IMG/VR virus record: IMGVR_UViG_3300012953_000002
Coordinates: 1-56,030 of that record
DNA length: 56,030 nt
From: a virus
Lineage: Duplodnaviria > Caudoviricetes
Strand: one strand, 5' to 3'
The notes under the pieces were generated by a model that had not been told where the DNA came from, did no database searches, and saw nothing but the letters and a program-made list of their open reading frames with translations. Below are positions 15,977 to 53,533 of the stretch, piece after piece (the stretch's first letter is position 1; each line of letters begins with the position of its first letter). The position numbers were made by a program, and so were the translations under genes.

Positions 15977-18070
15977 TTAAAAATTAGTTCCAAAAAATAC
16001 TGAATCATTTGCTGACGGTACAAACACATCAGTTGAATACTCTAAGTATGGTCTATATGCTGTAGTTAATGCATCAACCTGATTCATTGAATAATAATTT
16101 TGTTTTGTTGTTGTCAAACTCGTTAAAGTTGGATTTTCGTAAAAAATATCATGGTCATATAATCCTACAGTAAACTCGTTATCATTTGTTACGTCAGTTC
16201 TTGCAGTACTGTTTAATGTAATAAATGTATTTTCAGGACTTGTTGAATTATATGATGCATTTACATCAGCTGTAATACCTGTTTTTGACGAGTATTGAGT
16301 AACATCAGTATCATCCCAACCTGATGTATGTCCCACCATATTATTAAACTCATCAGTTCTATCAGATGCACTAGTTGAAGTTCCTGTGATACTTGATTTT
16401 AAAGCTATGATATTTACTTTTCTAACTCCATCTATAAGGTCTGTACAAACTCCTGTGCCTCTAAACCTAAGCGATACAGCTGTTACGGTATCAGTTACTC
16501 CTGACGTATCAAAATGAAAATTAGATTGAGTAAATCTCCATGTTTTTGTATATGTGGTTACTCCAGGACTATTTTGACTACCACCTGTCGTTGTAGATGT
16601 TGCTGAAAATGACCTTCCTACTGCTGTAGTAATAAAATCTTCATTAAAAATACCACCTTCACCTTGATTAGCTGCAGTTCCTGAAGTAGCATCTCTTATA
16701 ATCGTTAAATTTGCTTGAGTACGTGGATTAGGTAGTTGACTAGTATTTGATGTAGATACTTGGTAAAAAGGTATAGAATCTTCAACTTGGTCTATAGCCA
16801 AAGCAGTATCTAAGTATTGAGCTGTGTTTAAAAGTAGTGATTGCTTAGGCGTTAAAAGTTTCGTATACCTATAGCTACCGTCTTCATTCATAGTTAATGT
16901 ATGGTCAGTTGAATAATATAAATTTTCATAATTTTCATTAAAGGCTATAGGCGTTCCAATAACCATAGAATGTTTGTTAATTTTAAATTCAAAGCAGTTA
17001 CTTTCAAATGGCTTGTAATTATCGCTGTTAACTGTAATTTTTAAATCTTTATTAAACCTGCTTTTTATAGCTTCTTCAAATTCTGACACAGTAAAATCTA
17101 CATATGAAGTCTCTTGGAATGTCTTCCTTTTAAATAATGTTTTAATTTTATCAGGTATAGGCTGAGTATTAAAAAATGCAAAAAACGTATTATCATTTGA
17201 ATAAAATCCTCCAATTTTCTTATTATTTTTTGTAAAATATACACCTTTTCCTCCATCATTAAATATCTCATATCCATAAATATCACATATATGTGACGTT
17301 ATAATGCTTTCAAAATTATCTATATTTTGAGGTTTAACTGCAAATATAATTGCGTCTTTATAATAAACACTACTTCCACCTATGTACATTTGCTCAAGAG
17401 TATAATCTGAAAGATCATCATCACCAAATTCCTCGCTAATTGAATACTCACCTGTAGTTATATATTCATCTGTTATTTTTCCAACGTAACAATCTAAACT
17501 TGGAATATCGCTATTTTCAACGTTATAACTGTTATACATACCTAAAGTAGTAGAACCATTATTATCGCCTATATTGGTTATTTTAAAGCTATAATCGTAT
17601 AATGTAGTATCTGTTTCATATTTGGTATTTTGTAATTCTAAATTTTTAGCATATATATCAAATTCTATTTTACAGCTTTGAAAGCTTTTGTTTAATTTTA
17701 TCAATTGAAAAACTTTACTAGCTTTTAACTTTATTTCTAAATCATCTTCAACGTTAAATTCCTGTGAAATGCCATCTAATTCTACATTGACCAAACTAAA
17801 TTCTAATTGCTGAGTTCCTTCATGTTGATTATTATCAGGTCTTATGCCAACTACTTTATGAGGGTTATTTCCTTTTCTTTTACCTACACTAAGTACGCCT
17901 TTGTTCATTAAAGATATTTCACCAATATTTGATGTTGTATCTTGAAACGTATGGTCTATTTCTTCATATGTTCCTTCGCTTGTTTTATAAAATATGGGAG
18001 CTTGAAAGCAATAAGTTCTATATTTATTTTCAGCGTATTGTACTGTTGTTCTGTTTATTGGCTTGTTCAT
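15977..18070 (-). CDS. Tail-associated protein
   Basis: 697 aa, Thr/Ser-rich C-half, ends FFGTNF, similar to the adjacent fibre (ATVNF). Confidence 0.55.
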   Translation of the reverse strand: MNKPINRTTVQYAENKYRTYCFQAPIFYKTSEGTYEEIDHTFQDTTSNIGEISLMNKGVLSVGKRKGNNPHKVVGIRPDNNQHEGTQQLEFSLVNVELDGISQEFNVEDDLEIKLKASKVFQLIKLNKSFQSCKIEFDIYAKNLELQNTKYETDTTLYDYSFKITNIGDNNGSTTLGMYNSYNVENSDIPSLDCYVGKITDEYITTGEYSISEEFGDDDLSDYTLEQMYIGGSSVYYKDAIIFAVKPQNIDNFESIITSHICDIYGYEIFNDGGKGVYFTKNNKKIGGFYSNDNTFFAFFNTQPIPDKIKTLFKRKTFQETSYVDFTVSEFEEAIKSRFNKDLKITVNSDNYKPFESNCFEFKINKHSMVIGTPIAFNENYENLYYSTDHTLTMNEDGSYRYTKLLTPKQSLLLNTAQYLDTALAIDQVEDSIPFYQVSTSNTSQLPNPRTQANLTIIRDATSGTAANQGEGGIFNEDFITTAVGRSFSATSTTTGGSQNSPGVTTYTKTWRFTQSNFHFDTSGVTDTVTAVSLRFRGTGVCTDLIDGVRKVNIIALKSSITGTSTSASDRTDEFNNMVGHTSGWDDTDVTQYSSKTGITADVNASYNSTSPENTFITLNSTARTDVTNDNEFTVGLYDHDIFYENPTLTSLTTTKQNYYSMNQVDALTTAYRPYLEYSTDVFVPSANDSVFFGTNF

Positions 18071-21000
18071 TAGAAATTTACAGTTGCAACTCCATAAGCT
18101 ATCTCATTATCTGCGTCCCAAAAAAATGACAAAATATCAACTTTATTTGCAGTTGTTGTCAATGTTGGGTTAGCACCACCTGGAAATAGTACTGTTGAAC
18201 TTCCTGCCGCTGTTCCTGTACGGTCAAACGCTTTATAATTAGTTATTGCTCTTGAGCCTGAACCGTCTTGTTTTATTAATAAAGTATAATTACCTGAAGT
18301 TGGAGGAAAATATAAATTTAAATCTGTTATATTACCTGCTCCAAATGTTACAAACTGTTTATTTCCTGTTCTAAAATCTACATCAGTATCAGTAGCGTTA
18401 TATGTAGGAGTAACTAAATCAAACCCAACACCACAACCGTCAAATTCTACAAATCCTTGAATCTCCATATGCAAGTTTGCTAATTTTGTACCGTCATCAT
18501 CTACTGTAGCTAATGTTGTTTCTCCATTAGCAATAGTCCTCATACTAAAGTAATCACCTATATCTGCACTACTGTTTTGTCTATAATCTATTCCATCATT
18601 TGAAACTGTTTGTTGTATACCTATAGAACCTGTAGTACCATCTCCATTTTCCCCAACATTATTTATTATTCCATAATCAGCATCACCGCCTTTTATCAGA
18701 TTATACATTCCCATAGCAAAAGATGTGCCTGTTTTATTAGATATAACATTATTTTCAATGCCAACTGGATAATGACCTTGTACGTGTGTTGGAGCGTCAT
18801 CGTTAAGACTAATTCTCATTCCATACATTGAAATTGTTTGACCACCTGCAACTGCTCCTGTTTGGTCTAAATCTATATCAATACCATATACAGAACTTGA
18901 TGTTGTTGCTGTAGAATCTTTATCAATAGTTAATGTTCCTGCCATAGTATCATCAGCGTCATCTGTAACATAATTACTGCCTCCTCCACCACCGCCACCT
19001 GTTGTGTCAATCGAATCTTGAAGATTATCAAGTGTCATATATTTCCAAGCACTACCTGATTCATCCCATAATAATATTTTATCATCTGTTGCATCTGTGC
19101 TTTCATTAAGTTCTGATAAGTTAATAGGGTCATCAAGTGAAACAGTTACAGTATCAGTCGCTCCTACTGCTGTTACTATTGGCGAACTTCCTGCTATATC
19201 TAATGTATTACCATGTTGTATTGTTTGATTACTTCCACTATCTGCTGTTAATGTAAACGTAGTAAGTTGGTTTGTATTTGTATCAGTATCTGTTGGAGTT
19301 GCCCATGTACCATCTTTTTTTAAAAATGTAGCACCACTACCTCCACCTAAATTAGAAAGAGCAGCTCCACTTGATAAAGCAAAAGTAACAGTATCAGTTG
19401 AAGAAACTACTGTATCAATACCTGTACCACCTGTTAATTGAAGTGTGTTTCCATGAGCTATTGTTTCTGCTGTTCCTGAGTCTGCATCAACATCAAAAGT
19501 AGTAAGTTGATTAGTGTTTGTATCTGCAGTCATATCGTCTACTACTAAATTTATTTTACCTGCTCCTACTCCTCCATCTACATAAGTAGCTGCTATTCTT
19601 GTTTCTGTATTTGATGCAAACATTGCACCTACTATATCTTGAACTTCTTCTGTAGAAAGCTGTGTATTAGTGTCTGTTACTGTACTAGTAATAGTAACTG
19701 TTCCATCTGCAGTTGTTTCACAAGTTATACCTGTTCCTGCAGCAAACATTAAATCATCGCCTTGAGATATTGTTGTTGCATTACTATCAGTTGTAGCAGA
19801 TACTGTAAATGTTGTTAATTGATTTGTATTAGTGTCTGTATCTGTAGGAACAACCCAAGTCCCATCTTTTCTAAGAAATTGATTACTATGAGTTCCACTT
19901 CCTGCTGCAACTAATCCAGCTGCATAAGAATTACCAGATGCCATAACACTATAAGTTGTATCATTGTCAACATAATTACTAGCATGTATAGTACCTGCAC
20001 TTGATGCTGTCCAATCTATATGCTTATTAGCAGACCAATTGTTTAATGAATCGTGGTCTATTTCTGCAGGAACAGCCACAGCAGTTATTGTAGTACCACT
20101 ATTTGTTACTCCTACTCCACTAGAGCCTAGTATGGAAAAATCAGCAGAACCACCTGTATCTGAAGCTGCTGAACCACCTCCTGAATCTGTAGTTATTGTT
20201 ACCCCTGTAATATCTCCAGTATTTGCAGTTGCTCCATTGGCTACATTTAATAAAGCTCTAACAGAAGAAGCTGATAAAGCTATTGGTGCACCTGCATCGC
20301 CCTCATCGTGGCGACCTAATATTGTATTATCTGCTATATTTGCCATCTTAGCAAGAGTAATACCTGAATCTTTAACTCTCAATGTATCACTATTTGTTTC
20401 AATAGTAGAATCATCTACATTAACAGCTAGAGAAACACCACCTGAACTGCCTCCTCCTGATAGTCCATCTCCTGCAGTTACTCCTGTTATATCTCCTGAT
20501 GTAGTTGAATATCCATAAGCTTCTATTTTTTCTTTAATAGCTCCTGCTGTCATTAAAGATGTATCATTGTCTGTAAAACTACTACCTGTATGAACTGTTG
20601 TAATCCCTACTGTTCCACTTGTTGCATCATCAAATGTCCAAGTTCCTGTAGTTGTAAATCCTGCTGCAGTTATAGTTCCACTAGTTGTATCATCTTCATT
20701 ATCTCTTAAATAATTATTAGGTATAATTTGGTCACCTGTATTAGTTCCACTTAAATTACCTATATCTGTTAAATCTTGAGCTGATAAAGAACCACTACCA
20801 GTTATATAGCTTCCAGCAGCTTGAGCCCCTATATCAGACAATACTTCTGCTGGAGTTCTTTTTTTAACTACTCCACTTACTTCAACTAAATAATTATCTC
20901 CTGCTGTATCGGTATTAATAGTATTTATAGTTAATGTTCCTGATAAAACAGTACTAGCAGCATTAACATTTAAAGCTGTAGCAGCAGACGTTCCACTATC

Positions 21001-21570
21001 TCCTGCTCCTAATGTTATAGAACCATGAGATCCACTACCACCTGGTGCTTTTGTACCAGAAGAAAGTACTGTATCACCACCACTATTATTTCCTGAAGCA
21101 GAACCAGCTCCTAATATTTTTAAATCAGCTCCACTATCTCCATTTTCTAATTTTATTGTAGACCCAGTTGTTCCCCATGTAGGTTGTAGAGATATATCAC
21201 CTATTGATATTTTACTTACAGTATTGCTAGATGCTACATCAAAAACTTTAGAATCAATTGTTAAATAATCAATATTTGAAACACTAAATTTAGCTTTTTT
21301 CATATATAAATCATTATCAAGATTTAATTGACGTATATGATCGTCAGTTACTTTTTCTTTTAAAGCTGCTTTATTTCTATATCCAATTGTTTTACCATGA
21401 CCAAAATTATACCACTTACCACTTATTTTACCAAATAATATGTTTACACCTTTTACAGTAGTTAATCTTAAATCCCCATCTCTACCTTCTGAATTAGAAG
21501 GTAATTTAGTTTGTACGGATAATTTATCAGAACTAATTCTTTGTCTTATTTTTGTATTAATATTACTCAT
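18070..21570 (-). CDS. Tail fibre protein with internal repeats
   Basis: 1166 aa, Gly/Thr/Ser/Asp-rich; three DTNTNQLTTF and two FLxKDGTW repeats; C-terminal LLIKQDGSGSR...FPGGANPTLT...DILSF fibre-type module. Confidence 0.8.
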   Translation of the reverse strand: MSNINTKIRQRISSDKLSVQTKLPSNSEGRDGDLRLTTVKGVNILFGKISGKWYNFGHGKTIGYRNKAALKEKVTDDHIRQLNLDNDLYMKKAKFSVSNIDYLTIDSKVFDVASSNTVSKISIGDISLQPTWGTTGSTIKLENGDSGADLKILGAGSASGNNSGGDTVLSSGTKAPGGSGSHGSITLGAGDSGTSAATALNVNAASTVLSGTLTINTINTDTAGDNYLVEVSGVVKKRTPAEVLSDIGAQAAGSYITGSGSLSAQDLTDIGNLSGTNTGDQIIPNNYLRDNEDDTTSGTITAAGFTTTGTWTFDDATSGTVGITTVHTGSSFTDNDTSLMTAGAIKEKIEAYGYSTTSGDITGVTAGDGLSGGGSSGGVSLAVNVDDSTIETNSDTLRVKDSGITLAKMANIADNTILGRHDEGDAGAPIALSASSVRALLNVANGATANTGDITGVTITTDSGGGSAASDTGGSADFSILGSSGVGVTNSGTTITAVAVPAEIDHDSLNNWSANKHIDWTASSAGTIHASNYVDNDTTYSVMASGNSYAAGLVAAGSGTHSNQFLRKDGTWVVPTDTDTNTNQLTTFTVSATTDSNATTISQGDDLMFAAGTGITCETTADGTVTITSTVTDTNTQLSTEEVQDIVGAMFASNTETRIAATYVDGGVGAGKINLVVDDMTADTNTNQLTTFDVDADSGTAETIAHGNTLQLTGGTGIDTVVSSTDTVTFALSSGAALSNLGGGSGATFLKKDGTWATPTDTDTNTNQLTTFTLTADSGSNQTIQHGNTLDIAGSSPIVTAVGATDTVTVSLDDPINLSELNESTDATDDKILLWDESGSAWKYMTLDNLQDSIDTTGGGGGGGSNYVTDDADDTMAGTLTIDKDSTATTSSSVYGIDIDLDQTGAVAGGQTISMYGMRISLNDDAPTHVQGHYPVGIENNVISNKTGTSFAMGMYNLIKGGDADYGIINNVGENGDGTTGSIGIQQTVSNDGIDYRQNSSADIGDYFSMRTIANGETTLATVDDDGTKLANLHMEIQGFVEFDGCGVGFDLVTPTYNATDTDVDFRTGNKQFVTFGAGNITDLNLYFPPTSGNYTLLIKQDGSGSRAITNYKAFDRTGTAAGSSTVLFPGGANPTLTTTANKVDILSFFWDADNEIAYGVATVNF

Positions 21571-24500
21571 TATTTAGGTCTTTTTATTCTGTATACAAAA
21601 CTTATATCATTAATGTCAAATATTTTAGCTACATTTGTACTTTCAAATTTTAATGCAAATGAATATATATTATTTCCTCCTGTTCCAAATGTAATTTCAC
21701 CTCTTGTATATTCTGTGCTATGAAGCAATGTATTATCTGTTGTTGAGTTTTCTACAGTAGCTAATGTAAATGATCCGCTTTGATTTGCTTGATAATATAC
21801 TTTTATATCAGAGTCTGCTTTATATGTTATATATGCTTTATATATCTTTTTTCTTACATTGGGTTGTTCAAAATCAAAATCTTTAGTTTCTAGTAAAGCT
21901 TTGTTTAAATCACTTTCAGCATCACTTTCCCATCTTAATATTGAACCATTAGTACCTCCAGTTGCATATGCATTAATTGCCGTATCTGAATATGAAGAAA
22001 AAGGTGAGCTTGATTTCATTGTCATTGTAAAATATTTTAAATTATTAGTTCCTGTTACACTTCCATCGGAATCAGTAGCTATTGCACCAAAATTAAAATG
22101 GTCATTTAAATTAATTGTTCCTGAATACGGATCTGTCAAAGTATTGTTTTGTAAAAATTCATGTATATTAGTTATTAATGCATTACTATTATTTAAATTG
22201 GTTTCCCCTGCATCAGAATCATTAGAATAATTTGAACTAGTTGCAGCATTATATAAATTTGCAGGATTAGTCGATGTAATGTAATGTGTTTTCATAGTTC
22301 TTGATTCAAATGAATCGTTTCCAGTACTAATTCCATATTGTATTTCAATAGTGTATTCTGTTCCAGAATTAGATTTGTTTCCTCTATCAGCATATATTTG
22401 CCATACTCCATAAGTATTGTCAGTACCAGCTTGGTTTTGCATAATAGTAAAATTAGTCAAATCTCCAATTGCAATATTACCCTCAGTTCCATCATCACTT
22501 AATGCCCATGGAGTAGACCCATAATCTCCTTTAGATTCAGCATTTAAAGTATAACTAGCTCCAACATATCTAGCCAATGCAGTTACTAAAAAACTATCAT
22601 TACTACTTAAATAACTCATACTATGAATGTAATCAGAATTATTTACTCCTAATGTATTAGATTTTTCAAGAAATAAAGGGATCAATAGATTTGCTGCTTC
22701 TTCATCATCAGATAAATTTAATGACTCATTAAAAGCAGTATTATTAATTTTTGTCCATGTAGAACCTTTGTGAAGCATTAAATATTTATTACCCGTACCT
22801 CCTAAACTATTGTTATGGCTTGAATTATTAATTTTAAATGATAGCACAACTCTAGCTTTATTACCTAATACAAATGCCGTACTATTATTAGCATGGAATG
22901 ATTCACCATCTCCACTTGCATCTTTTACACTTAAATACAATTTATTATTTGAAATAACTCCTTTTGAATATTGAGAACCACCAATAACAGAAGGACTACT
23001 TTTAAAATAAAGACCTGCTGTAGCAATATTTATAACCCAAACATGTTGGTCGTATAAGGAATTTCCCACATCTTTATATCTACTAAATATTAATAACAAA
23101 TTATCCTGAGGTTCATATTCAATATGAGTAAATGGGTTATATATTTTTTGTACCCATTCATCAGTAGGTATCATATTTTTTATAATATTTACAGGAGGAT
23201 TTTCCATATCCATAGCATAAACACCTTGACTATTTACCCAGTAAATAGCATTAGGAGTTGAACATACTGCAGTAGGAGAAGATATTCCTACTCCTCTATG
23301 TGTTGATTCTAAATATTCAATTTCTCCTGAACAATCAATTACAAATAAATCATCATTTTTAAAAACTAATAACTTTTGATTAAATGAAACTAATTTAACA
23401 ATATCCTGACCATCATTATTAGTAATATCTAAGAAACTTGAAGATGGTAATATATCAAATTTATTAACAGGGGATCTTAATATTCTATCAGGAAAAACAT
23501 TTGGAGAATCACTATCATCTAAATTTATTTCTTTATCTTTATAATATGCTACATTTCCAGCATATAATCTTCGATTAACAATAGCGTGTGTTTTATACCA
23601 TGCATGAATGTTATCTGTATGTTTATATCCATTTTTTAAACTATATGTTAATACAGGCACTGTTGGAATACCTTTAATAAACTGATGCCTTACTGTATAT
23701 CCTTCACTACTTGCATACCAATCTTCTGATGTTGACTCTACTTCAATTCCATCATGAGAAAAACTTTTTTTAGTGTTTTCAAAGCTAATTGTAGCTAACC
23801 ACAATGGATCGTCAATAGCTCCTTCATTATTATATGTAAGCCAAACATTAGCTCCTACAATTCTTGGATTCCATTGTCCCCAATTTGAAAAACCTTCATT
23901 CATATCAGAACCTCTAAATTCTGCTACTGATGTAGGATATTGGAAAGTACTAGATAATTCTTTTTGATTACTTGTGTGTGTATCATCTCCTTGATATACT
24001 TTCCAATATAAAAATAAAGCTTTATCGTTTTCTCCACTAATAGTAATTGTATTAGCATTAGCTGAAGTAATTAAAGGACTAATTAATGATTCAGATGGAT
24101 TTTCAATATTATCATATAAAAAAGAAATTCCTAATCCAATCGTTCTATGCTCTTGATCTGTATCAAACTGCCAATCTCCAGATATAGAATTATTTCCAGT
24201 TCCTACTCCAACTGCAAATTGATGTGGAATTTTTGTAGAACTTAAATAACCAACACCTACAGGACTTTCAACTTGAGCATCCCAGTCAGTTAATGTAGCA
24301 GCAGTTGCATGATGTATAATAGAACCTGCTCCATTAAAATTTGTACCTTTATTAACTGAAGTTATATTGGTTGTTGCATTATGATATTCTTCTGGACTTA
24401 AACAATGAGACCTTAATGGATACCATCCTTGAAATATTTTTGAAGTACCAAATCTTGTAGAATTATTTATTGCATATAGTCCTATAGGGCGTACAAATCT

Positions 24501-25325
24501 TCCATAATTATAATTATTTGGAAAATCTAATAATAATCTAAATACGCCACTTTCATAAAATCCATCAAGTACTTTAGTTTGATTAATATTCCCTTGATTT
24601 AAAAGCTCTCTATTATCTTGTTTCCAATCCCATAAATATTTTGTATCAAAATGCCAAGGATCATTACTAAAATGATTGGAATATCCTTCATCTGACCTTC
24701 CGTACCAATGTCTAAAACTACCTATATTATAAAATCCAAACTTACCATATTGAGTGGCTTTAAAAAAATATTTATTATCATCATAATTAGTTGTGCTAAT
24801 AGAGTTTAATATTTCATTTGAATCATATTGAGCGTTTAAAGCATAATAAATTAATCCATTAGTACTCATTCCAGTTGAATCATCTGCTTTAAAGCTTGTA
24901 TTGTTAACAATCTCTGTAACAATTAAATTTTTACCTAAAAACTGACTATCAGTGTTTGTCTTTATTACTGTTAATTTTGCTCCTAAATCTAAAGAATGAT
25001 AGGCAGTTCCTGGCTCTACCGTATAAGTTCCAGTAGTGCCAGAAACACCTGTACATTTAGCTTTTCCAAAAATACGAAATCCAAACTCAGGAAATATACC
25101 ATATAAATTAGGAATTCCTTCTGATATATACTGAGATGAAAAGCTACCAGTATTTTCATTAAGTCCTGGTATAGTATTTAAACACCCTTTAAGCGTTAAT
25201 CTCCCTGCACGATAACTCATTAAGCCGTCTGAATCAACAATTTGCTTTAATTCTATATCACGTTTATCTACTGCCTTGTTTATACCGCCAGAAAAATCTA
25301 CTATATTTAAGACTTGCTTTGCCAC
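21570..25325 (-). CDS. Tail tubular/nozzle (stabilisation-type) protein
   Basis: 1251 aa, GTG start; N-terminal DFSGGIN, propeller-like middle, C-terminal ETKDFDF...RKKIYK typical of podovirus tail hub proteins. Confidence 0.7.
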   Translation of the reverse strand: MAKQVLNIVDFSGGINKAVDKRDIELKQIVDSDGLMSYRAGRLTLKGCLNTIPGLNENTGSFSSQYISEGIPNLYGIFPEFGFRIFGKAKCTGVSGTTGTYTVEPGTAYHSLDLGAKLTVIKTNTDSQFLGKNLIVTEIVNNTSFKADDSTGMSTNGLIYYALNAQYDSNEILNSISTTNYDDNKYFFKATQYGKFGFYNIGSFRHWYGRSDEGYSNHFSNDPWHFDTKYLWDWKQDNRELLNQGNINQTKVLDGFYESGVFRLLLDFPNNYNYGRFVRPIGLYAINNSTRFGTSKIFQGWYPLRSHCLSPEEYHNATTNITSVNKGTNFNGAGSIIHHATAATLTDWDAQVESPVGVGYLSSTKIPHQFAVGVGTGNNSISGDWQFDTDQEHRTIGLGISFLYDNIENPSESLISPLITSANANTITISGENDKALFLYWKVYQGDDTHTSNQKELSSTFQYPTSVAEFRGSDMNEGFSNWGQWNPRIVGANVWLTYNNEGAIDDPLWLATISFENTKKSFSHDGIEVESTSEDWYASSEGYTVRHQFIKGIPTVPVLTYSLKNGYKHTDNIHAWYKTHAIVNRRLYAGNVAYYKDKEINLDDSDSPNVFPDRILRSPVNKFDILPSSSFLDITNNDGQDIVKLVSFNQKLLVFKNDDLFVIDCSGEIEYLESTHRGVGISSPTAVCSTPNAIYWVNSQGVYAMDMENPPVNIIKNMIPTDEWVQKIYNPFTHIEYEPQDNLLLIFSRYKDVGNSLYDQHVWVINIATAGLYFKSSPSVIGGSQYSKGVISNNKLYLSVKDASGDGESFHANNSTAFVLGNKARVVLSFKINNSSHNNSLGGTGNKYLMLHKGSTWTKINNTAFNESLNLSDDEEAANLLIPLFLEKSNTLGVNNSDYIHSMSYLSSNDSFLVTALARYVGASYTLNAESKGDYGSTPWALSDDGTEGNIAIGDLTNFTIMQNQAGTDNTYGVWQIYADRGNKSNSGTEYTIEIQYGISTGNDSFESRTMKTHYITSTNPANLYNAATSSNYSNDSDAGETNLNNSNALITNIHEFLQNNTLTDPYSGTINLNDHFNFGAIATDSDGSVTGTNNLKYFTMTMKSSSPFSSYSDTAINAYATGGTNGSILRWESDAESDLNKALLETKDFDFEQPNVRKKIYKAYITYKADSDIKVYYQANQSGSFTLATVENSTTDNTLLHSTEYTRGEITFGTGGNNIYSFALKFESTNVAKIFDINDISFVYRIKRPK

Positions 25326-35356: not shown

Positions 35357-37656
35357 CTAATTCTTTTCAGTATTAGATTGCAAGTTTTTTATTATATTAT
35401 CTGCTTCCATTTTAATTCTTTCTTTTTGCTGGTTAGCTTCATCTATGACAACTTTTTGTGCAAGTTTTTGTTTTGCTTGAGTTTCAAGAAACTCTTTTTT
35501 AGTGTCTGTATCAACTTGAGATTTTTGTTTAGCTATTTCAACTTCTGCTTTATTCACTTTATCTTTTATACCAGCTTGAACTAATTGTCTTTCTAATGTT
35601 TCAATAGTTCCAGTTTGTTTTTTAAGTTGTTCTTCCATTCCTTGAACTTGACCTTGTAGCTGAGAATATACACTTTTTCTTTTAGCAATTTGTTCTTTAT
35701 TTTTTAAATCAGTTTCTGCTAATACAGCTATATCATCAACAATACCCATTTGCATCATATCTTTTAATTCAGCCAAATATGCCCACCTATTAACAGGCAT
35801 TGTAGAACCTGCAACTATTCTAATATCAAATTTAGCTGATGCATAATCTTTTAATTTACCTACAGCTTCACCTAAATCATTATATATAGGAATATTAATT
35901 TCAATTTCTCTTTGTTCTTGAATAGCACTAGGCTGAACAATTCTAAATACTTTATGAGCAGTATAAACAGATTGAGTAAATTGTTTCACAACTAACCCAA
36001 TTTGTTTTAATCCAGGCTCTAAAGCATTTTGCATCCATTGTTTAATTCTTCTAGTACCATATTCATCCATAGCCAACATACCTCTATATGTTTCATGTTG
36101 AGATCCAGTATCTCCCATCATAGAAGAATATATTCCTGCTAAATATTCCATATCTCCTTTTGCATTTTGTACAATATTAAAAAATGCACTATTTAATGGA
36201 GCTGGTTGAATAGCTTGTGGAGCTTGAGAACCAGGTCTTATTGGTAACAATGCTCCTGGAGAACTTGCATATTTTTCCCAATAATCAGTATCAATACTTC
36301 CTTCTTCATGCATCCATCTTAAAGAACTACCTAGTGAAGCATTATGTATAAGTAATTGATGAGACTTATTAACTTCTCTTTGTTTGCCTATTAATGGAGA
36401 AACTGCCGATATTGGATATGGAGTTCCTGTCCATTTATAATGTAATGGTACAATAGGATATTCTGTAATCCCTTCTGGTAAAATTTTTGTAAATAATGTT
36501 TTATCTCCAGCAATGCAACATTTTTGTATTCTTGTTCCATGAAATTCAACTGCATCAACAATTTTATCTTTAAAAGCAGTATCTTTTACCATTATTTGAT
36601 ATTCTTTATCACTAATAACAACGTTCTGAACTATACTAGCATTTTTTTGTAATTCAGCAGTCATCTGTTCTTGAGCTTGTTGTAATTGCATTTGCATATT
36701 TTGTTGTAATTTTTGTATTTCTAATTCATATCTTTCTGGAATCATTTCTCCAGATTGGACTGCCATTTCCATAGCTTTTTGCTGTTCTAAAAATCCTACT
36801 TCTAATTCAGCTTGCATTTCTTGCATTTTTACTGAAACTTGTTGTTGTATTTGTTGCAATACTTCTTTAGTTAATGGTTCTTGATAAATACATTAACATA
36901 TTTAATTTTAATTTTTTCATACATTTCAAAATATTCTATAGCTTCTTCTCTATCTCCTTCTAAAGTAGATGTATCTGAAGAGTCAATATCTTTATAACCA
37001 AAATCTTTCATAGTAGTAGATCTAGATTTTTCACTATAATCATATTCATTATCATTTAATGAACCAGCTTTTTTAATTTTATTTTTATAATCAGGATAAA
37101 TAGAAATTAAATGATCTTTAGGTAAAATTTTTCTAATTAAAATAAATGAAGCATCTCTAAATAATAAATCTCTTGATTTTGGATCTACAAAAACATCAAA
37201 TGGTTCTGGATTTTTAATAACAACATCCCCCATCCCATTATCTGAATCAGTATCTACTGTAATATGTAGATAGCCTACTCCTTTTGTAACTGCATCATTA
37301 ACAGCATTAGCATAAAGAGAGGATCCATCAGAATTGTCCCATATATAATCGGCCATATCAGAAAATACAGCAGCAACATCAATGTCACTACCTTCTGCGC
37401 CAATGGCTTGCCATCTAGGTTTGTTAGCTGTGGCGTAAAAATTTAACATTTCTACTACAGGCATAATGCGGTTGATTGTGAATGTTGGCATGCCTTGTTC
37501 TTCTAATGCAACCCTCTCTTCATCAGTTAGTTGATTATCATTAGCAAAATCTACACCTTTTTGATTAACATATTCCCATTGGGCTCTATATTCACCATTT
37601 GCTATTTCAAATATATCTTTTATTCGTAATGCATTTTTATCTGTTCTTTTTGCCAT
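35357..37656 (-). CDS. Portal protein (P22-like), split by a 1-nt frameshift near 36886-36888
   Basis: TINRI and EPFDVFVDP in the first part; YPIVP and QREVNK in the second. Adding one T gives ...VFYQEPLTKEVLQQ..., 766 aa. Confidence 0.85.
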
Positions 37657-44931: not shown

Positions 44932-45459
44932 ATGGGATTTGATATACATGGGATAAAACCCAAAATAAATGTAAAACTAGATGATACTACAGTTTATGGT
45001 ATGATAGAGTCAATTGATGATTTTGCAGAAAGATGGTCAATACAAGATAAGTTAGGTAAAAATGATCGTAAAAAGTATTGGAAAGAGATGGAAAAACATC
45101 ATGATGATAATCCAGGTATATATTTTCGAAATAATGTATGGTGGTGGCGTCCTTTATGGGATTATGTATGTGATACATGTAAAGAGATTCTTAATGATGA
45201 AGATGTAAATGCTGGTTTTTATAATGATTTAAAAACAATCTCTAGTGAAAAAGCTATAAAAATAGCAAATGTATTATTTGAAAAGATAAAATCTGGACAT
45301 ACTGATAAATATGCAAAGCAATTTGAAAAAGACAGAAAAAAGTTAGAGAAAAATGAGGATAAAGACAGTCAATTTATGTCAAGTTATCCCTTTGATACTA
45401 AAAATGTTAAAAGATTTGCTGAATTTTGCAAAGAATCAGGAGGTTTTGAGATATGTTAA
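44932..45459 (+). CDS. Conserved-looking phage protein of unknown function
   Basis: 175 aa, MGFDIHG, YFRNNVWWWRPLW, FCKESGGFEIC. Confidence 0.75.
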   Translation: MGFDIHGIKPKINVKLDDTTVYGMIESIDDFAERWSIQDKLGKNDRKKYWKEMEKHHDDNPGIYFRNNVWWWRPLWDYVCDTCKEILNDEDVNAGFYNDLKTISSEKAIKIANVLFEKIKSGHTDKYAKQFEKDRKKLEKNEDKDSQFMSSYPFDTKNVKRFAEFCKESGGFEIC

Positions 45460-45608
45460 AAGTAAAAGTAATTAGATTAGATAAAACTGGTAATCTTCAA
45501 GAATATACTATGAATTTTAAGGATACTAAGAGTAATAATCTAGAAATAGAAAAATTAGCTGATATAGCAGAAGATTGTTATGTTGATCAGTTAAATAGCT
45601 GGAAATAG
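45453..45608 (+). CDS. Hypothetical protein, 51 aa
   Basis: AGGAGG upstream, MLKVKVIRLDKTG... Confidence 0.5.
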   Translation: MLKVKVIRLDKTGNLQEYTMNFKDTKSNNLEIEKLADIAEDCYVDQLNSWK

Positions 45609-45637
45609 TTAACTAAATACAGAATAGGAGGCCAATT

Positions 45638-45853
45638 ATGGCAAATGTTAGAACAATAAGATGGTTAGCAGGTGGTGGTTTTGTTGATAAGGAAGTATCA
45701 TCAACAACAGTAGCTCAATTAAGAGCTGAGTTAGATATTAGCCCTGGTGCTGATATTGCAGTTAATGGAACTAATGTGGCGGATACGCATGAACTTACAG
45801 ATGGTTCCGTGGTAGCAGCTGTTCAGAATAACAAATCTGGCGGTAGCTACTAG
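45638..45853 (+). CDS. Ubiquitin-like (beta-grasp) modifier
   Basis: 71 aa; TVAQLR, IAVNG, LTDGSVV; ends KSGG-SY. Confidence 0.85.
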   Translation: MANVRTIRWLAGGGFVDKEVSSTTVAQLRAELDISPGADIAVNGTNVADTHELTDGSVVAAVQNNKSGGSY

Positions 45854-45868
45854 TTTAGTGTAAACACA

Positions 45869-45924
45869 GAAGAATGGGGGATGATCCACACTTACAATCC
45901 TACTCAAATTATCCCCTTTTCTTC
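45869..45924 (+). promoter_or_regulatory. Intercistronic hairpin between Ubl and E2-like genes
   Basis: GAAGAAUGGGGGAUGAU/AUUAUCCCCUUUUCUUC. Confidence 0.6.
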
Positions 45925-45943
45925 GTAACATAGGAGAGATACA

Positions 45944-47254
45944 ATGCAAACAAATTTATTTGAATTAAATCCAGATTTGAGAACCTTAATAGAAAATATT
46001 CAATTAGGACCTCAAGCTGAAGTATTAGAGTTAATTGATCAATTTAATACTAGATACGTACAAGGTGAAAATCATATAGCAAGGCCTTATAATTTACATG
46101 CACCTACCAAACCTCTTGGTATTACTAAGAAATTTTATTGGAAGCCAGGAGCTTATGATACTATAAAAGATGTAATATGGTATCAAGGTGAAATGCATAA
46201 GAAAGCAGCTTCACTAGGAAAAGTTGTACAAAGAGTTAAAGATAATGCTAATTGGAGATTAAGAGGTATTAAAAATGAACTACAAAGCATTGAAGATATA
46301 TTAACTAGATTTAGACAACAAGGCTTAATAATGCAAGATAATACTGATGATGTAATTGAGTCATGGGAGATAATAAAAGCTCATTTATATCAACAATATG
46401 AAATGTCTGATGGTGCTTTTGGTTTAAAATTAGAAGAAGTAATAGTTAATGATGTTATTGTTAATTATTATTTGGATGTTATATATACTTACTCAGATAT
46501 TAAGATTAATTATAGACATTTTGATAATCCAGATAGTATAGCAGAAATTAACTTACCTGGACAAGGTCATATAACAATTAGACTATCTATAGTAAAATTA
46601 ATAAATAGTTTAATATCTGCAAAATTGAATATTAATAATATATCACGAAGTAATGTTAGAATAGCTAATGGTCATAGTGGTAATAAAAATTGGTTTTATG
46701 CTATAGGTGGTAGATGGTTTGGAAGTTATGAAGGATTACAACATCCATTTATATCTAATAACAGCTATTCATACAATTATCAAGGATTATTTAGCGATAA
46801 CTTCAGATATACTTGTGTAGGAGGAATGAGTCAAGAATTTCAATCTTGTGTTGAATCATTAGACTTTATATCTCTAAAAGTATTCGTTGAAAGATTACTA
46901 ACGCATTATGATACTAATACAGGTCCGTTAAATCAAATTAGCCAATCTTATCATGGACAACCTAATTTCTTAGAAGGGTTAGATGAATATAATAATATAG
47001 TTGGTAGAAAACCAGCTGATCAATGTGGCTATAGAGGTATAGTTCAAGGTTATGCTGAAGAAGGAATAAACATTGAAGAAGATTCTTATTGTGCTGAATT
47101 CTGTGCAATTAAAGACAAATGTGCATCTTATAAAGCTGCTGTAATATTATATAAAGATGAACCTGTAGAAGTTTCGCCTACAAACACAAACGCTGAAAGA
47201 GAAGCTCTGGAAGCATTAACATTAAATCTAGTAAATAATAGGAGGAATCAATAA
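45944..47254 (+). CDS. Putative E2-like conjugating enzyme with long N-terminal extension
   Basis: HPFIS (H267) then YTCVG (C291), fitting the HP..C(L/V)G E2 signature; lies between Ubl and JAB. Confidence 0.6.
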   Translation: MQTNLFELNPDLRTLIENIQLGPQAEVLELIDQFNTRYVQGENHIARPYNLHAPTKPLGITKKFYWKPGAYDTIKDVIWYQGEMHKKAASLGKVVQRVKDNANWRLRGIKNELQSIEDILTRFRQQGLIMQDNTDDVIESWEIIKAHLYQQYEMSDGAFGLKLEEVIVNDVIVNYYLDVIYTYSDIKINYRHFDNPDSIAEINLPGQGHITIRLSIVKLINSLISAKLNINNISRSNVRIANGHSGNKNWFYAIGGRWFGSYEGLQHPFISNNSYSYNYQGLFSDNFRYTCVGGMSQEFQSCVESLDFISLKVFVERLLTHYDTNTGPLNQISQSYHGQPNFLEGLDEYNNIVGRKPADQCGYRGIVQGYAEEGINIEEDSYCAEFCAIKDKCASYKAAVILYKDEPVEVSPTNTNAEREALEALTLNLVNNRRNQ

Positions 47255-48210
47255 TGGAAGTATTTATAGAAAAGAAAGACTGGGATAAGATAATTAATTA
47301 TGCCAGATGTGCTTCAGATAAATGGAGTACAGAAATAGGTGGTATGGCAGTAACTATTCAAGATGAGGATGGTGATTGGCATATTGCAGATCCAGTAATA
47401 ATGAAACAAGAAGTATCTGCAGCATTATGCGAATTAGATAAAACTGAATTAGCAGCATATTATAGTAAAATGGCTATGAAGTATAAGAAAAAGAATATTC
47501 GTTTCTGTTGGTGGCATTCTCACGCTAAAATGGATGCTTTTTGGAGTGGTACTGATACAAATACTATAGATGAGTATGAAGATGGCGACTTAAGCTTTGC
47601 TTTAGTAGTTAATGTAAAAGAAGAGTATAAATGTAGAGTATCAGTATGGAAACCTTTCACAATGCATAAAGATGTTGAACTTAATATCTTAAATGATGAG
47701 AAAGAATTTAAGATACCTAAGAAAATCAATGATGAAGTAGAAAAGTTCTGTACTAAACCAGCTACTAATTGGTATAATTCTGGTAGTAATTGGAGTAAAT
47801 GGACTAACAAAGGAGTAACAACTGGAACTGTTATCCCTGGAGTAAATCAAACTACTTTATTTAACGCACAACTTAGTAAAGATAGTGAAATGAATATAGT
47901 AAGGACAGCATGGATACAACTACTAGAAAAAGTAGATAGTGTAAATTCTTCATTTATAGCTGGTGAATTTGACTATGAAAAGTATGCTAATAAAATAAAA
48001 GATATAAACAGAAGATTAACAAATGCTAAGATGCCTTTAAGCGTAGAATTAATAGAGAAATGTGATTTTGACACTCTATTAGAACTACATTCTTGGGATT
48101 TAATCGTTTGTGATCCTGGTTATGAGGAATTAGATCCTTATATGGACTATGCTGATGAACAAAGTTGGAATGAAAGTTATTTAACAGGAGGAATCAATGG
48201 ACAAAAATAG
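47254..48210 (+). CDS. JAB/MPN+ metalloprotease
   Basis: E27...WWH88-S-H90-x7-S98-x2-D101 JAMM motif. Confidence 0.92.
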   Translation: MEVFIEKKDWDKIINYARCASDKWSTEIGGMAVTIQDEDGDWHIADPVIMKQEVSAALCELDKTELAAYYSKMAMKYKKKNIRFCWWHSHAKMDAFWSGTDTNTIDEYEDGDLSFALVVNVKEEYKCRVSVWKPFTMHKDVELNILNDEKEFKIPKKINDEVEKFCTKPATNWYNSGSNWSKWTNKGVTTGTVIPGVNQTTLFNAQLSKDSEMNIVRTAWIQLLEKVDSVNSSFIAGEFDYEKYANKIKDINRRLTNAKMPLSVELIEKCDFDTLLELHSWDLIVCDPGYEELDPYMDYADEQSWNESYLTGGINGQK

Positions 48211-48859
48211 TAGATTCAGTGATATTGTTAGTAATATGAATGACTATTCTTACCATATACTTGGTTGCGGGGCTATCGGTAGCTCTGCAGCCATACAATT
48301 GGCAAGAATGGGAGCTGAAAGCTTTAGTTTATACGATAATGATAGTGTTGAGCAACCAAATATAGGTGTGAGTCAGTATAACATAAAAGATGTCGGTAAA
48401 AGTAAAGTTGAATGTTTGTATCATCATATAATAAATATCACTGGGAACAAGAAAACGGTCGATAAATATTTCGGTAAATTTCCAGAAAACAATGAGTATA
48501 TACCTATGAGTCAGCATAACGATATAGTTATACTGGGCTTTGATAGTATGCAATCTAGATTAGATGCAGTAACTCATATATCTAAAAGCAGAATTAAACC
48601 TTTTGCAATTATTGATGGTCGTATGGGAGCTGAACATTATCAGCAATATGTATTACCAAAGCCAACATTGAAAAGTTATCTCACAACATGGTATCCTGAT
48701 GGAGATTCTGATCCTGAACCATGTACAATGAAGGCAACAAGTTATTGTAGTAATATGAGTGGAAGTTTTATTTGTAATGCTGTTAGGAAGTTAATAACTA
48801 ACCAGCCTTATGATAAGAAATTCTCATTTAACTTTCCTACAATGATACTTGGAAAATAG
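48197..48859 (+). CDS. E1/ThiF-family activating enzyme
   Basis: GCGAIGS, YDNDSVEQPN..SQ, GKSKV, GFDS, IDGRMG, candidate catalytic Cys176 (EPCT); no CxxC pairs. Confidence 0.92.
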   Translation: MDKNSRFSDIVSNMNDYSYHILGCGAIGSSAAIQLARMGAESFSLYDNDSVEQPNIGVSQYNIKDVGKSKVECLYHHIINITGNKKTVDKYFGKFPENNEYIPMSQHNDIVILGFDSMQSRLDAVTHISKSRIKPFAIIDGRMGAEHYQQYVLPKPTLKSYLTTWYPDGDSDPEPCTMKATSYCSNMSGSFICNAVRKLITNQPYDKKFSFNFPTMILGK

Positions 48860-52669: not shown

Positions 52670-53533
52670 ATGAAATATGTAAATAGAAAGGCAATGAAGA
52701 TTAGAGAATCAGGGCGTAGTAGTGATTTTATTACTCCTAGCTTTGGTTTTGGTTGTTTATACAAGTGTACGTATTGTTATATGCGTAGACATGTTCCAAA
52801 TGGGCTTACAATAGCTCAAAATCCTGAAGATATACTTATAGCTATAGAAAACCATAGTAATGAACTTAAATGGCCTAAAAAGCCTAATCAAACACATGAA
52901 GAATATTATAGTTATGATTTTAGTTGCAATGAAGACTTTGTATTACATTCTAGGTATCATGATTGGAGACTTGTATTTGATTATTTTAAATATCATGAAA
53001 AAGCTATGGGTACTGCTGCTACTAAATATGTTAATAAAGATTTATTAGATTATGATGCAGATAGAAAAATACGAATTAGGTTTAGTATTATGCCTCAACA
53101 ATTAGCTGATAAATTAGAACCTGGGACATCTAAAATACTAGATAGAATTAAAGCTGTAAATGATTTTTATGAAGCAGGTTATGATGTTCATTTAAATTAT
53201 TCTCCAGTAATAGTACATAAAGATTCTAGAGATATGTATATAGATTTATTTGAGGCTGTTGATAAGTATGTTGATAATAGTATTAAAGATAAAGTAAAAT
53301 GTGAAGTAATATTCTTAACACATAATAAACAAATGCATCAATATAATTTAGATAACAATAAAACAGAACAAGAAGAGTTATTATGGAAGCCTAACATACA
53401 AGAAACTAAAATATCTCAATATGGTAATACTAATATTAGATATAAGTATGATTATAAATGGCGTTGTATATCAAAGTTTAAAGAATTACATAACTTTGTA
53501 TTGCCATGGCAAGAAATAAGATACATATTCTAG
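52670..53533 (+). CDS. splB: Spore photoproduct lyase-family radical SAM enzyme
   Basis: GCLYKCTYCY (CxxxCxxC), ATKYVN, RIRFS, EPGTS...RIKAVN...GYDVHLNYSPVI. Confidence 0.85.
   Translation: MKYVNRKAMKIRESGRSSDFITPSFGFGCLYKCTYCYMRRHVPNGLTIAQNPEDILIAIENHSNELKWPKKPNQTHEEYYSYDFSCNEDFVLHSRYHDWRLVFDYFKYHEKAMGTAATKYVNKDLLDYDADRKIRIRFSIMPQQLADKLEPGTSKILDRIKAVNDFYEAGYDVHLNYSPVIVHKDSRDMYIDLFEAVDKYVDNSIKDKVKCEVIFLTHNKQMHQYNLDNNKTEQEELLWKPNIQETKISQYGNTNIRYKYDYKWRCISKFKELHNFVLPWQEIRYIF

Follow-up and report, generated by a model that had tools for sequence, protein, structure and literature searches.

A putative ubiquitin-like conjugation cassette in the replication arm of a marine phage genome

What would a bacterial virus do with a set of genes that resembles a miniature ubiquitin system? 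The question is raised by the viral record IMGVR_UViG_3300012953_000002 (hereafter the window, meaning the whole stretch of 56,030 nucleotides that was analysed), which carries four co-oriented genes at positions 45,638 to 48,859. The first-pass annotation of this locus had read them as genes for a ubiquitin-like protein (Ubl) of the beta-grasp type ending in GG-SY, an E2-like (conjugating) protein, an intact JAMM protease and a ThiF/E1 (activating) enzyme with a candidate catalytic cysteine, the last three genes overlapping. The coordinates are exactly as claimed, and the assignments of the first, third and fourth products hold when profile matches and residue conservation are considered. The second product is a candidate E2-like protein: an invariant cysteine and a UBC-like topology speak for this call, which is made at the level of the fold with modest scores, and no E2 sequence profile recognizes the protein. 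Judging from the sequences, we consider it probable that the cassette is a phage-encoded, self-contained ubiquitin-like conjugation pathway expressed together with replication and recombination genes. Its features are as follows.

45638-45853, plus strand: ThiS-type beta-grasp tag precursor, 71 amino acids (aa) (Pfam ThiS)
45869-45924, plus strand: hairpin and U-rich run (RNA folding)
45944-47254, plus strand: 436-aa E2-like protein (predicted structure; no sequence-family match)
47254-48210, plus strand: JAMM/JAB (MPN+) metallopeptidase, 318 aa (PADLOC JAB, JAMM motif)
48197-48859, plus strand: minimal ThiF-type E1, 220 aa (Pfam ThiF)

The gene of the 436-aa protein overlaps the JAB gene by 1 base and the JAB gene overlaps the E1 gene by 14 bases. 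An AGGAG-type ribosome-binding site precedes every one of the four starts, and the 436-aa gene is translationally coupled with those of JAB and E1.

The tag precursor matches Pfam ThiS with an E-value of 9.5e-5 and 23.3 bits, against a cut-off of 22.5; this is its only profile match. Its C-terminus reads ...NNKSGGSY, i.e., K-S-G-G followed by the two-residue tail SY. All 11 aligned homologues have both glycines, G68 and G69, while the residues after them differ (SY, C, CQ, SSC, LLV, KKA), and the tags of divergent relatives have K-x-G-G followed by 0-12 residues. An invariant Gly-Gly with a variable tail is the pattern that a peptidase-trimmed precursor would be expected to display.

In the 90 bases that separate the tag gene from the next gene, a strong, G/C-rich hairpin is predicted (-21.6 kcal/mol, z -3.9, with 0 of 200 shuffles as stable); it is followed by a U-rich run and stands between the tag gene and the enzyme genes. 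A hairpin is found at the same place in all eight other loci that were folded, with different stem sequences and with z values from -1.2 to -4.4, two of them being only -1.2 and -1.7. A scan for consensus terminators did not list the hairpin, and a scan for σ70 promoters was uninformative, having returned 23 sites against a shuffle mean of 32.4, that is, fewer than in the shuffles. The hairpin is possibly an attenuator, a terminator or a 3′ stabilizer that uncouples the level of the tag from that of the enzymes.

The peptidase matches the PADLOC JAB model PDLC00905 (1.4e-6) and, below the cut-off of 25 bits, Pfam Prok-JAB (PF14464; 17.6 bits, 3.6e-3). The JAMM motif E...HSH-x7-S-x2-D is intact, being made up of E27 and WWHSHAKMDAFWSGTD, and none of the 44 distinct sequences compared departs from it at E27, H88, H90, S98 or D101. 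Among solved chains, the Rpn11-like protein 6fjv, which we take to be that of Caldiarchaeum subterraneum, comes nearest (7.4e-4). The catalytic domain (residues ~1-145) is followed by a C-terminal half, whose 158 aa have no match in Pfam.

The E1 consists of a single Rossmann domain that matches Pfam ThiF (PF00899) well above the cut-off (1.4e-16, 60.8 bits against 28.1). It also matches the E1-E2 models of PADLOC with E-values down to 1.1e-13, only the E1 part of the models being covered, and the defence model 6A-MBL cap2_3 (1.4e-11). All 43 sequences compared share G23, G25 and G28 (of G23-C-G25-A-I-G28), D47, D116, R121, R142, C176 and C184; C176 is the cysteine that the first-pass annotation had put forward as catalytic. 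All 19 NCBIfam models listed for this protein stay below their cut-offs, the best being NF006395 ThiF with 63.9 bits against 159, and the nearest solved chains are MccB, Uba4 and PaaA. In public metagenomes, the small E1 is represented by 1,349 clusters at 90% identity (E<=1e-5), and nearly all of the 120 clusters listed contain proteins of 214-232 aa.

The 436-aa protein, which contains ...LQHPFIS...RYTCVGG..., has no match in Pfam, PHROGs, PADLOC or NCBIfam. Its family profile retrieved a chance-level match alone from PDB sequences (E 1.4), and neither 80 distant family members nor the 39 members of one divergent alignment (A2, searched with E up to 10) gave a consistent Pfam family, the latter set also yielding no E2 model. 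The sole lead from a sequence model comes from the ESM Atlas, where 26% of the members of one cluster carry Prok-E2_D; the score, 0.77, is below the 0.9 mark. The AlphaFold2 model, built from a 27-sequence alignment with a mean predicted local distance difference test (pLDDT) value of 81.5 and a predicted template modelling (pTM) score of 0.75, consists of three parts: a helical N-terminus (~1-130), a UBC/UEV/RWD-like core (~134-340) and a Cys-rich C-terminus with C361, C383, C387 and C393. The core opens with a helix (134-154) and three long strands (160-168, 171-191 and 198-215), which are followed by an inserted helix, a strand (252-259), His267-Pro268, a short strand (288-290), Cys291 and two helices (293-304 and 308-320). 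This order, namely alpha1, three long strands, a fourth strand, the HP motif, Cys291 and two helices, fits the topology of the UBC fold. Cys291, the residue that the first-pass annotation had named in the E2-like protein, is invariant both in 39 sequences that are ~20-25% identical and in a wider set of 51; Pro328 is likewise invariant (51/51), and Asn330 is present in 50 of 51.

In the structure searches, E2, UEV and RWD folds predominate, at modest scores. Among weak Foldseek rows against PDB, TSG101 UEV and Rad6 recur. A second aligner placed residues ~135-337 of the full-length model on E2, UEV and RWD folds with Z 4.4-4.8; ten rows are named E2, Ubc, UEV or RWD, and the matched chains comprise E2 E1, UbcH5B, Ubc9, a Plasmodium E2, Pex4p, the UEV domains of TSG101 and VPS37A, FTS and RWD domains. 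With the core folded alone, 24 of the 50 listed neighbours bear such names, with a best Z of 5.7. The call of a UBC-like core is a weak one, resting on the consistency of these lists, on topology and on the position of Cys291 in the model rather than on any single score.

The four genes also travel together. A search seeded by the 436-aa protein retrieved 38 metagenome or Tara proteins; at 50% identity the family counts 201 representatives, of which 77 have E<=1e-10. We tabulated, with hidden Markov models (HMMs), 16 viral or metagenomic loci obtained with this seed. The tag gene is located upstream of the 436-aa gene in all 16, and, where the DNA extends far enough, JAB is found downstream in 15 of 15 and E1 in 13 of 13. 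An independent seed, an E1 that is ~62% identical to that of the window, yielded 48 further viral loci. JAB directly precedes E1 in 45 of them, the remaining three starting inside E1, and the 436-aa family directly precedes JAB in 39; the other nine have no room for it, since they start within ~270 bases of JAB or inside E1. The tag HMM was positive in 21 of the 48. Eleven loci had room for a tag and were negative with this HMM; eight of these were examined (L041, L043 and L073 were left out), and each of the eight has an open reading frame (ORF) of 96-115 aa ending in K-x-G-G directly upstream of the 436-aa-family gene. The order tag, E2-like protein, JAB, E1, which the first-pass annotation proposed to look for in viral databases, is kept in every related locus whose DNA extends far enough and so is not due to chance.

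A two-motif scan of one genome from each of 185,579 prokaryote species retrieved no relative, DNA and protein searches of 50,697 GenBank phage records with the 436-aa gene and JAB gave no match, and a distant family member (P0049) had no match in viral contigs. The locus searches used one alignment (A1) and a degenerate DNA motif, alignments A2 and A6 being too divergent. On sequence comparison, the 436-aa protein is the fastest-evolving component of the cassette: it is 75% identical to its counterpart in locus L001, compared with 92-95% for tag, JAB and E1, and in locus L028 the identity falls to 22%, compared with 51% for E1 and 48% for JAB.

Some relatives depart from this pattern. Of the viral-contig loci found with the 436-aa family as seed, L028 diverges most; a 171-aa ORF without a Pfam match (4432-4947) is inserted between its tag and E2-like genes, and an AAA_24 (Sak4-like) ATPase (8211-8957) is found in place of the ERF gene of the window. 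In a subgroup of eight loci (L035, L037, L040, L054, L055, L057, L072 and L076), the E2-like proteins reach ~590-695 aa and the tags 96-115 aa; these longer tags are missed by the tag HMM, and two of them end exactly at GG, without a tail.

The chemistry that we infer from the protein families would run as follows. The JAB peptidase would cut the variable tail (in this phage SY) off the 71-aa precursor and bare the Gly-Gly. The E1 of 220 aa, which is probably homodimeric as are ThiF and MoeB, would adenylate the C-terminal glycine of the tag and may also carry the tag as a thioester on C176 or C184. The tag would then be handed on to Cys291 of the UBC-like 436-aa protein, which would move it onto lysines of one or more host or phage proteins. 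The helical N-terminal domain and the Cys-rich C-terminus of that protein would provide recognition of partners or substrates in place of a separate E3 (ligase); such a candidate targeting role fits the protein, because it combines a three-part architecture with fast evolution. JAB may reverse the modification too, and the hairpin that follows the tag gene would allow more tag than enzyme to be produced. The cassette might serve to take over the host, to counter defences or to control the replication of the phage itself.

Several observations weigh against this reading. No profile method ties the 436-aa protein to any E2 family (UQ_con, Prok-E2_A-E, PRTRC_B or PADLOC E2). Foldseek found no match for it in PDB at E<=0.001, and Z values under 8 from the second aligner, the best here being 5.7, can reflect a merely common arrangement of elements. 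Folded alone, the core gives a poorer model (pLDDT 63.5, with the HP-Cys291 loop below 50). The HP motif is H-P-[FY]-[IV] and lacks the Asn; its first position is H in 34 of 51 sequences and F in 17, P being present in 50. The E1, to judge by its length and its one Pfam domain, lacks a ubiquitin-fold domain or mobile Cys domain for the recruitment of an E2. As the first-pass annotation had also remarked, no E3 was found, and the cassette contains no RING E3. Finally, the large terminase of the phage is <26% identical to that of any cultured phage, and host assignment with it failed. A prediction of the complex of E1, mature tag and 436-aa protein scored 0.00 (mark, 0.32); it was run without controls and counts neither way.

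Some of these points would suit a system in which the E1 conjugates the tag on its own, as happens with archaeal SAMP/UbaA and Thermus TtuB/TtuC. The 436-aa protein would then be a non-catalytic UBC-like (UEV/RWD-type) adaptor or the main substrate, and Cys291 would be structural or metal-binding. The degenerate HP motif and a small E1 with no obvious E2-docking domain agree with such an arrangement, as do the top structural neighbours of the core (rows 1-8) and several rows for the full-length model, which are non-catalytic RWD and UEV domains and not active E2s. However, Cys291 is the most conserved residue in a family that has otherwise diverged to ~20% identity, and in the model it occupies the position of the E2 active-site cysteine, between the fourth strand and the crossover helix, which it immediately precedes. 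In addition, the 436-aa gene is strictly linked to, and translationally coupled with, those of JAB and E1. We consider tagging without an E2 unlikely.

With the chemistry left as proposed, the cassette could instead be a Bil-like anti-phage module that the phage carries to exclude competitors from the infected cell. According to two published accounts, bacterial Ubl/E2/JAB/E1 operons (Bil) and CBASS (a system of anti-phage signalling by cyclic oligonucleotides) Cap2/Cap3 act in defence against phages (PMC10557695, PMC11601596). The matches of the E1 to E1-E2 and cap2_3 defence models of PADLOC and NCBIfam would accord with this function, and the fast evolution of the 436-aa protein would fit an arms race. 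However, the 220-aa single-domain E1 is unlike BilD (PMC10557695). The absence of 436-aa relatives from the 185,579 prokaryote species scanned leaves no bacterial donor system in sight, and in every related phage locus the replication module includes the cassette as a constant component, not as a sporadic accessory island. Exclusion of other phages is, in our view, a rather improbable function.

A third possibility would keep the tag and change its use. The adenylated tag would be converted into a C-terminal thiocarboxylate and give up its sulfur to an acceptor, either a nucleic acid or a small molecule; the 436-aa protein would be the sulfur-inserting enzyme, and JAB would serve only to mature the carrier. 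There are precedents for the latter, as a JAB matures the sulfur carrier in the QbsCDE and CysO/Mec+ pathways. The ThiS match of the tag, the ThiF-type sulfur-carrier adenylyltransferases that head the NCBIfam matches of the E1, its nearest solved chains and the position of the cassette among DNA-metabolism genes all speak for such a route; so do C361, C383, C387 and C393, which are present in 38-39 of 39 sequences in one alignment and could bind a metal or an Fe-S cluster. Yet in the wider alignment only C387 is invariant (51/51), the others being found in 41 of 51, possibly through alignment error; the E1 stays far under every NCBIfam ThiF/MoeB cut-off; and the core of the 436-aa protein resembles UBC, UEV and RWD folds, not known thiolation enzymes. 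The first-pass annotation had noted that sulfur-transfer and cofactor genes are missing nearby, and indeed none is among the Pfam/PHROG matches of the 58 ORFs of the window; the Pfam matches contain no rhodanese, cysteine desulfurase, PP-loop ATPase, cofactor-synthesis gene, ThiG/ThiH, MoaE or CysM. Host enzymes could stand in for the missing donor and acceptor genes. We regard a sulfur-carrier pathway as quite improbable.

The cassette belongs to a phage. The 56,030-base record is an entire virus genome with direct terminal repeats (completeness rated 100%) from a marine source. Two arms can be distinguished by Pfam and PHROG matches:

~1-41 kb, minus strand: small and large terminase, P22-type portal, SU10-type major capsid protein and large unassigned proteins
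~41-55 kb, plus strand: polynucleotide kinase/phosphatase, ERF annealing protein, primase-helicase, RusA/PDDEXK-type resolvase and a spore-photoproduct-lyase-like radical-SAM protein

The sign of the GC skew flips at ~42 kb, in agreement with the two-arm layout. The terminase, portal and capsid genes bear out the phage setting proposed in the first-pass annotation. None of the 58 ORFs matches an integrase family in Pfam or PHROGs; the description of the phage there as apparently lytic is consistent with this result and not proven by it.

The four ribosome-binding sites of the cassette are strong Shine-Dalgarno sequences of the AGGAG(G) type, located at 45625-45637, 45930-45943, 47240-47253 and 48186-48196. 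Since sites of this type are seldom used by Bacteroidota, the host may lie outside that phylum, despite the likeness of the E1 to proteins of crAss-like and Flavobacterium phages.

That likeness extends to gene order. The window E1 matches 82 GenBank phage records, among them 29 of Bacteroides (crAss-like) phages and 29 of Flavobacterium phages; the full-length matches listed are 25-31% identical to it. Five of these phages carry, in the same order as in the window, genes for proteins of 218-289 aa and 371-444 aa, a JAB-like “metalloprotease” and a “ThiF”:

crAss001, gp79-gp76 (L014, NC_049977), 1295-5705
cr85_1 (L012), 1990-5705
cr128_1 (L079), 1153-5205
bajarodcaudo virus 1 (L011), 1574-5705
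FpV4, gp53-gp50 (L013, NC_041872), 1595-5606

The module adjoins genes for primase and uracil-DNA glycosylase and so lies in the replication module; the GenBank labels of its genes include “thiamine biosynthesis protein” and “hypothetical protein”. With phmmer, the window E1 matches the ThiF of cr85_1 at 2.4e-23 and the window JAB matches its metalloprotease at 6.2e-6. The E1s of these phages are larger than that of the window (228-383 aa). Their first gene is longer than the tag: a K-S-G-A/G motif, located by eye, occurs ~90-95 alignment columns in and is followed by ~120-200 more residues, so that the product reads as a fusion.

Homology of the first two genes of the module to the tag and 436-aa families is not claimed. 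Comparison by hhalign gave a probability of 5.9% for the tag family against the N-termini of the first-gene proteins and of 0.2% for the 436-aa family against four second-gene proteins. Among the matches listed in a search for homologues of crAss001 gp78, only proteins that were at least 79% identical appeared, and the search was not used. When the full-length model of the 436-aa protein was compared with BFVD, matches to uncharacterised proteins were obtained, namely a 420-aa viral entry (4.8e-4), a “Podoviridae sp.” entry (1.2e-3), a 373-aa “CrAss-like virus” protein (E 7.9e-3, prob 0.99) and a 435-aa protein of cr128_1 (E 0.13, prob 0.41). The last has the length of the product of the gene upstream of the cr128_1 metalloprotease, and the 420-aa entry has that of FpV4 gp52; the two entries are candidates for these proteins.

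Several features of the window lie apart from the cassette. Directly upstream of it, two plus-strand ORFs of 175 aa (44932-45459) and 51 aa (45453-45608) have no family match; the shorter is present in seven and the longer in five of the first nine loci, and the 175-aa protein evolves about as fast as the E2-like protein (57-74% identity). These ORFs could encode partners or targets of the cassette. Further downstream, the profile of spore photoproduct lyase (PF20903) matches a 287-aa protein (52670-53533, plus strand) at 1.7e-23, and that of Radical_SAM does so weakly; the protein may be an enzyme that repairs ultraviolet damage in this marine phage. In the structural arm, the portal gene is found as two adjacent minus-strand ORFs, 36871-37656 (261 aa) and 35357-36859 (500 aa), which match the N-terminal (profile positions 22-212) and C-terminal (245-593) parts of the P22_portal model; the split could be a frameshift, a sequencing error or genuine. 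The same arm contains a 2,900-aa ORF (1932-10634, minus strand) and two ORFs of ~1,200 aa each (18070-21570 and 21570-25325), none of which has a Pfam or PHROG match.

What the cassette would mean depends on whether the conjugation reading is right. Tentatively, we suggest that a large and abundant marine phage group, possibly together with crAss-like gut phages and Flavobacterium phages, may possess a complete Ubl conjugation pathway built around an unrecognised E2 family and use it offensively. If this were so, the E2 family would bring its own substrate-recognition modules and would tag host or phage proteins during replication, and the cassette would count as the first system of the ubiquitination type in a bacterial virus, a mirror image of the Bil defence, which tags phage proteins. 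Ubiquitin-like conjugation in bacteria is known so far as an anti-phage weapon (Bil, CBASS Cap2) or from untested operons on mobile DNA; here, an abundant uncultured phage group would have the whole pathway, fixed and conserved, in its replication module. Phages would then, provided that the cassette conjugates, use the same chemistry against or alongside their hosts. The fast-evolving E2-like protein with built-in extra domains would offer a natural model for E3-independent choice of substrates, and the culturable phages crAss001 and FpV4, with their similarly ordered JAB-ThiF module, open a route to experiments. Our literature search, with subscription-only papers and supplements outside its reach, found no paper on a phage Ubl/E2/JAB/E1 cassette of this kind and no paper naming both crAssphage and ThiF.

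The cassette has features in common with ThiS/ThiF and MoaD/MoeB: a beta-grasp protein of the ThiS type, with GG at its C-terminus, is paired with a small ThiF-type enzyme of one domain. In QbsCDE and CysO/Mec+, moreover, a JAB trims a short tail after the GG of the carrier. Unlike these sulfur-carrier pairs, the cassette has no acceptor or sulfur-donor enzymes, misses the equivalog cut-offs and has an additional UBC-like protein with an invariant cysteine. In PRTRC (ParB-related, ThiF-related cassette; TIGR03735-TIGR03742), too, mobile DNA carries an E1 of the ThiF type along with a small Ubl, an E2-like protein and a JAB-like one. Membership in PRTRC was rejected: the scores are 26.3 bits against 144.75 for PRTRC_ThiF (TIGR03736) and 12.7 against 101.8 for PRTRC_A (TIGR03735), the tag and the 436-aa protein match no PRTRC model in NCBIfam, and Pfam recognizes no ParB-like gene in the window. 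Type II CBASS Cap2/Cap3 combines an E1-E2 fusion with a CD-NTase and an effector, whereas E1 and the E2-like protein are separate genes here and the Pfam matches of the window include neither a CD-NTase nor an effector family.

The ubiquitin operon of Caldiarchaeum subterraneum (Ub, E1, E2, RING E3 and Rpn11) is reported to be likewise compact and to have a precursor-processing JAB (PMC6043591, PMC5654768). The cassette differs from it in having no RING E3, an E2-like protein that is unrecognisable as UBC by sequence and a much smaller E1.

The Bil (BilABCD, “ISG15-like”) operons (types I/II; classes 6d/6c of Iyer et al. 2006) have the same four parts, Ubl, E2-like protein, JAB and E1 (PMC10557695, PMC1779556). 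BilA is described there as having a conserved Gly followed by non-conserved residues, with BilC cutting after that Gly (PMC10557695); the tag of the cassette also combines a conserved Gly with a non-conserved tail, and its cleavage is predicted. A long loop between strand 4 and the catalytic cysteine, as reported for the E2 of these systems, is found here as well (PMC10557695, PMC1779556). The differences are equally clear. The cassette keeps a His-Pro N-terminal of the cysteine, whereas class 6d is without that His (PMC1779556). BilD has inactive and active adenylation domains in tandem and a mobile Cys domain (PMC10557695), in contrast to the 220-aa single adenylation domain of the cassette E1. 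The E2-like protein, at 436 aa, has extra N- and C-terminal modules and no detectable relation to E2 models. Finally, Bil is found in bacterial genomes as a defence operon, whereas the cassette is carried by a lytic-looking phage. The phage setting, the abundance, the minimal E1 and the new, fast-evolving E2-like family are the points that set this cassette apart.

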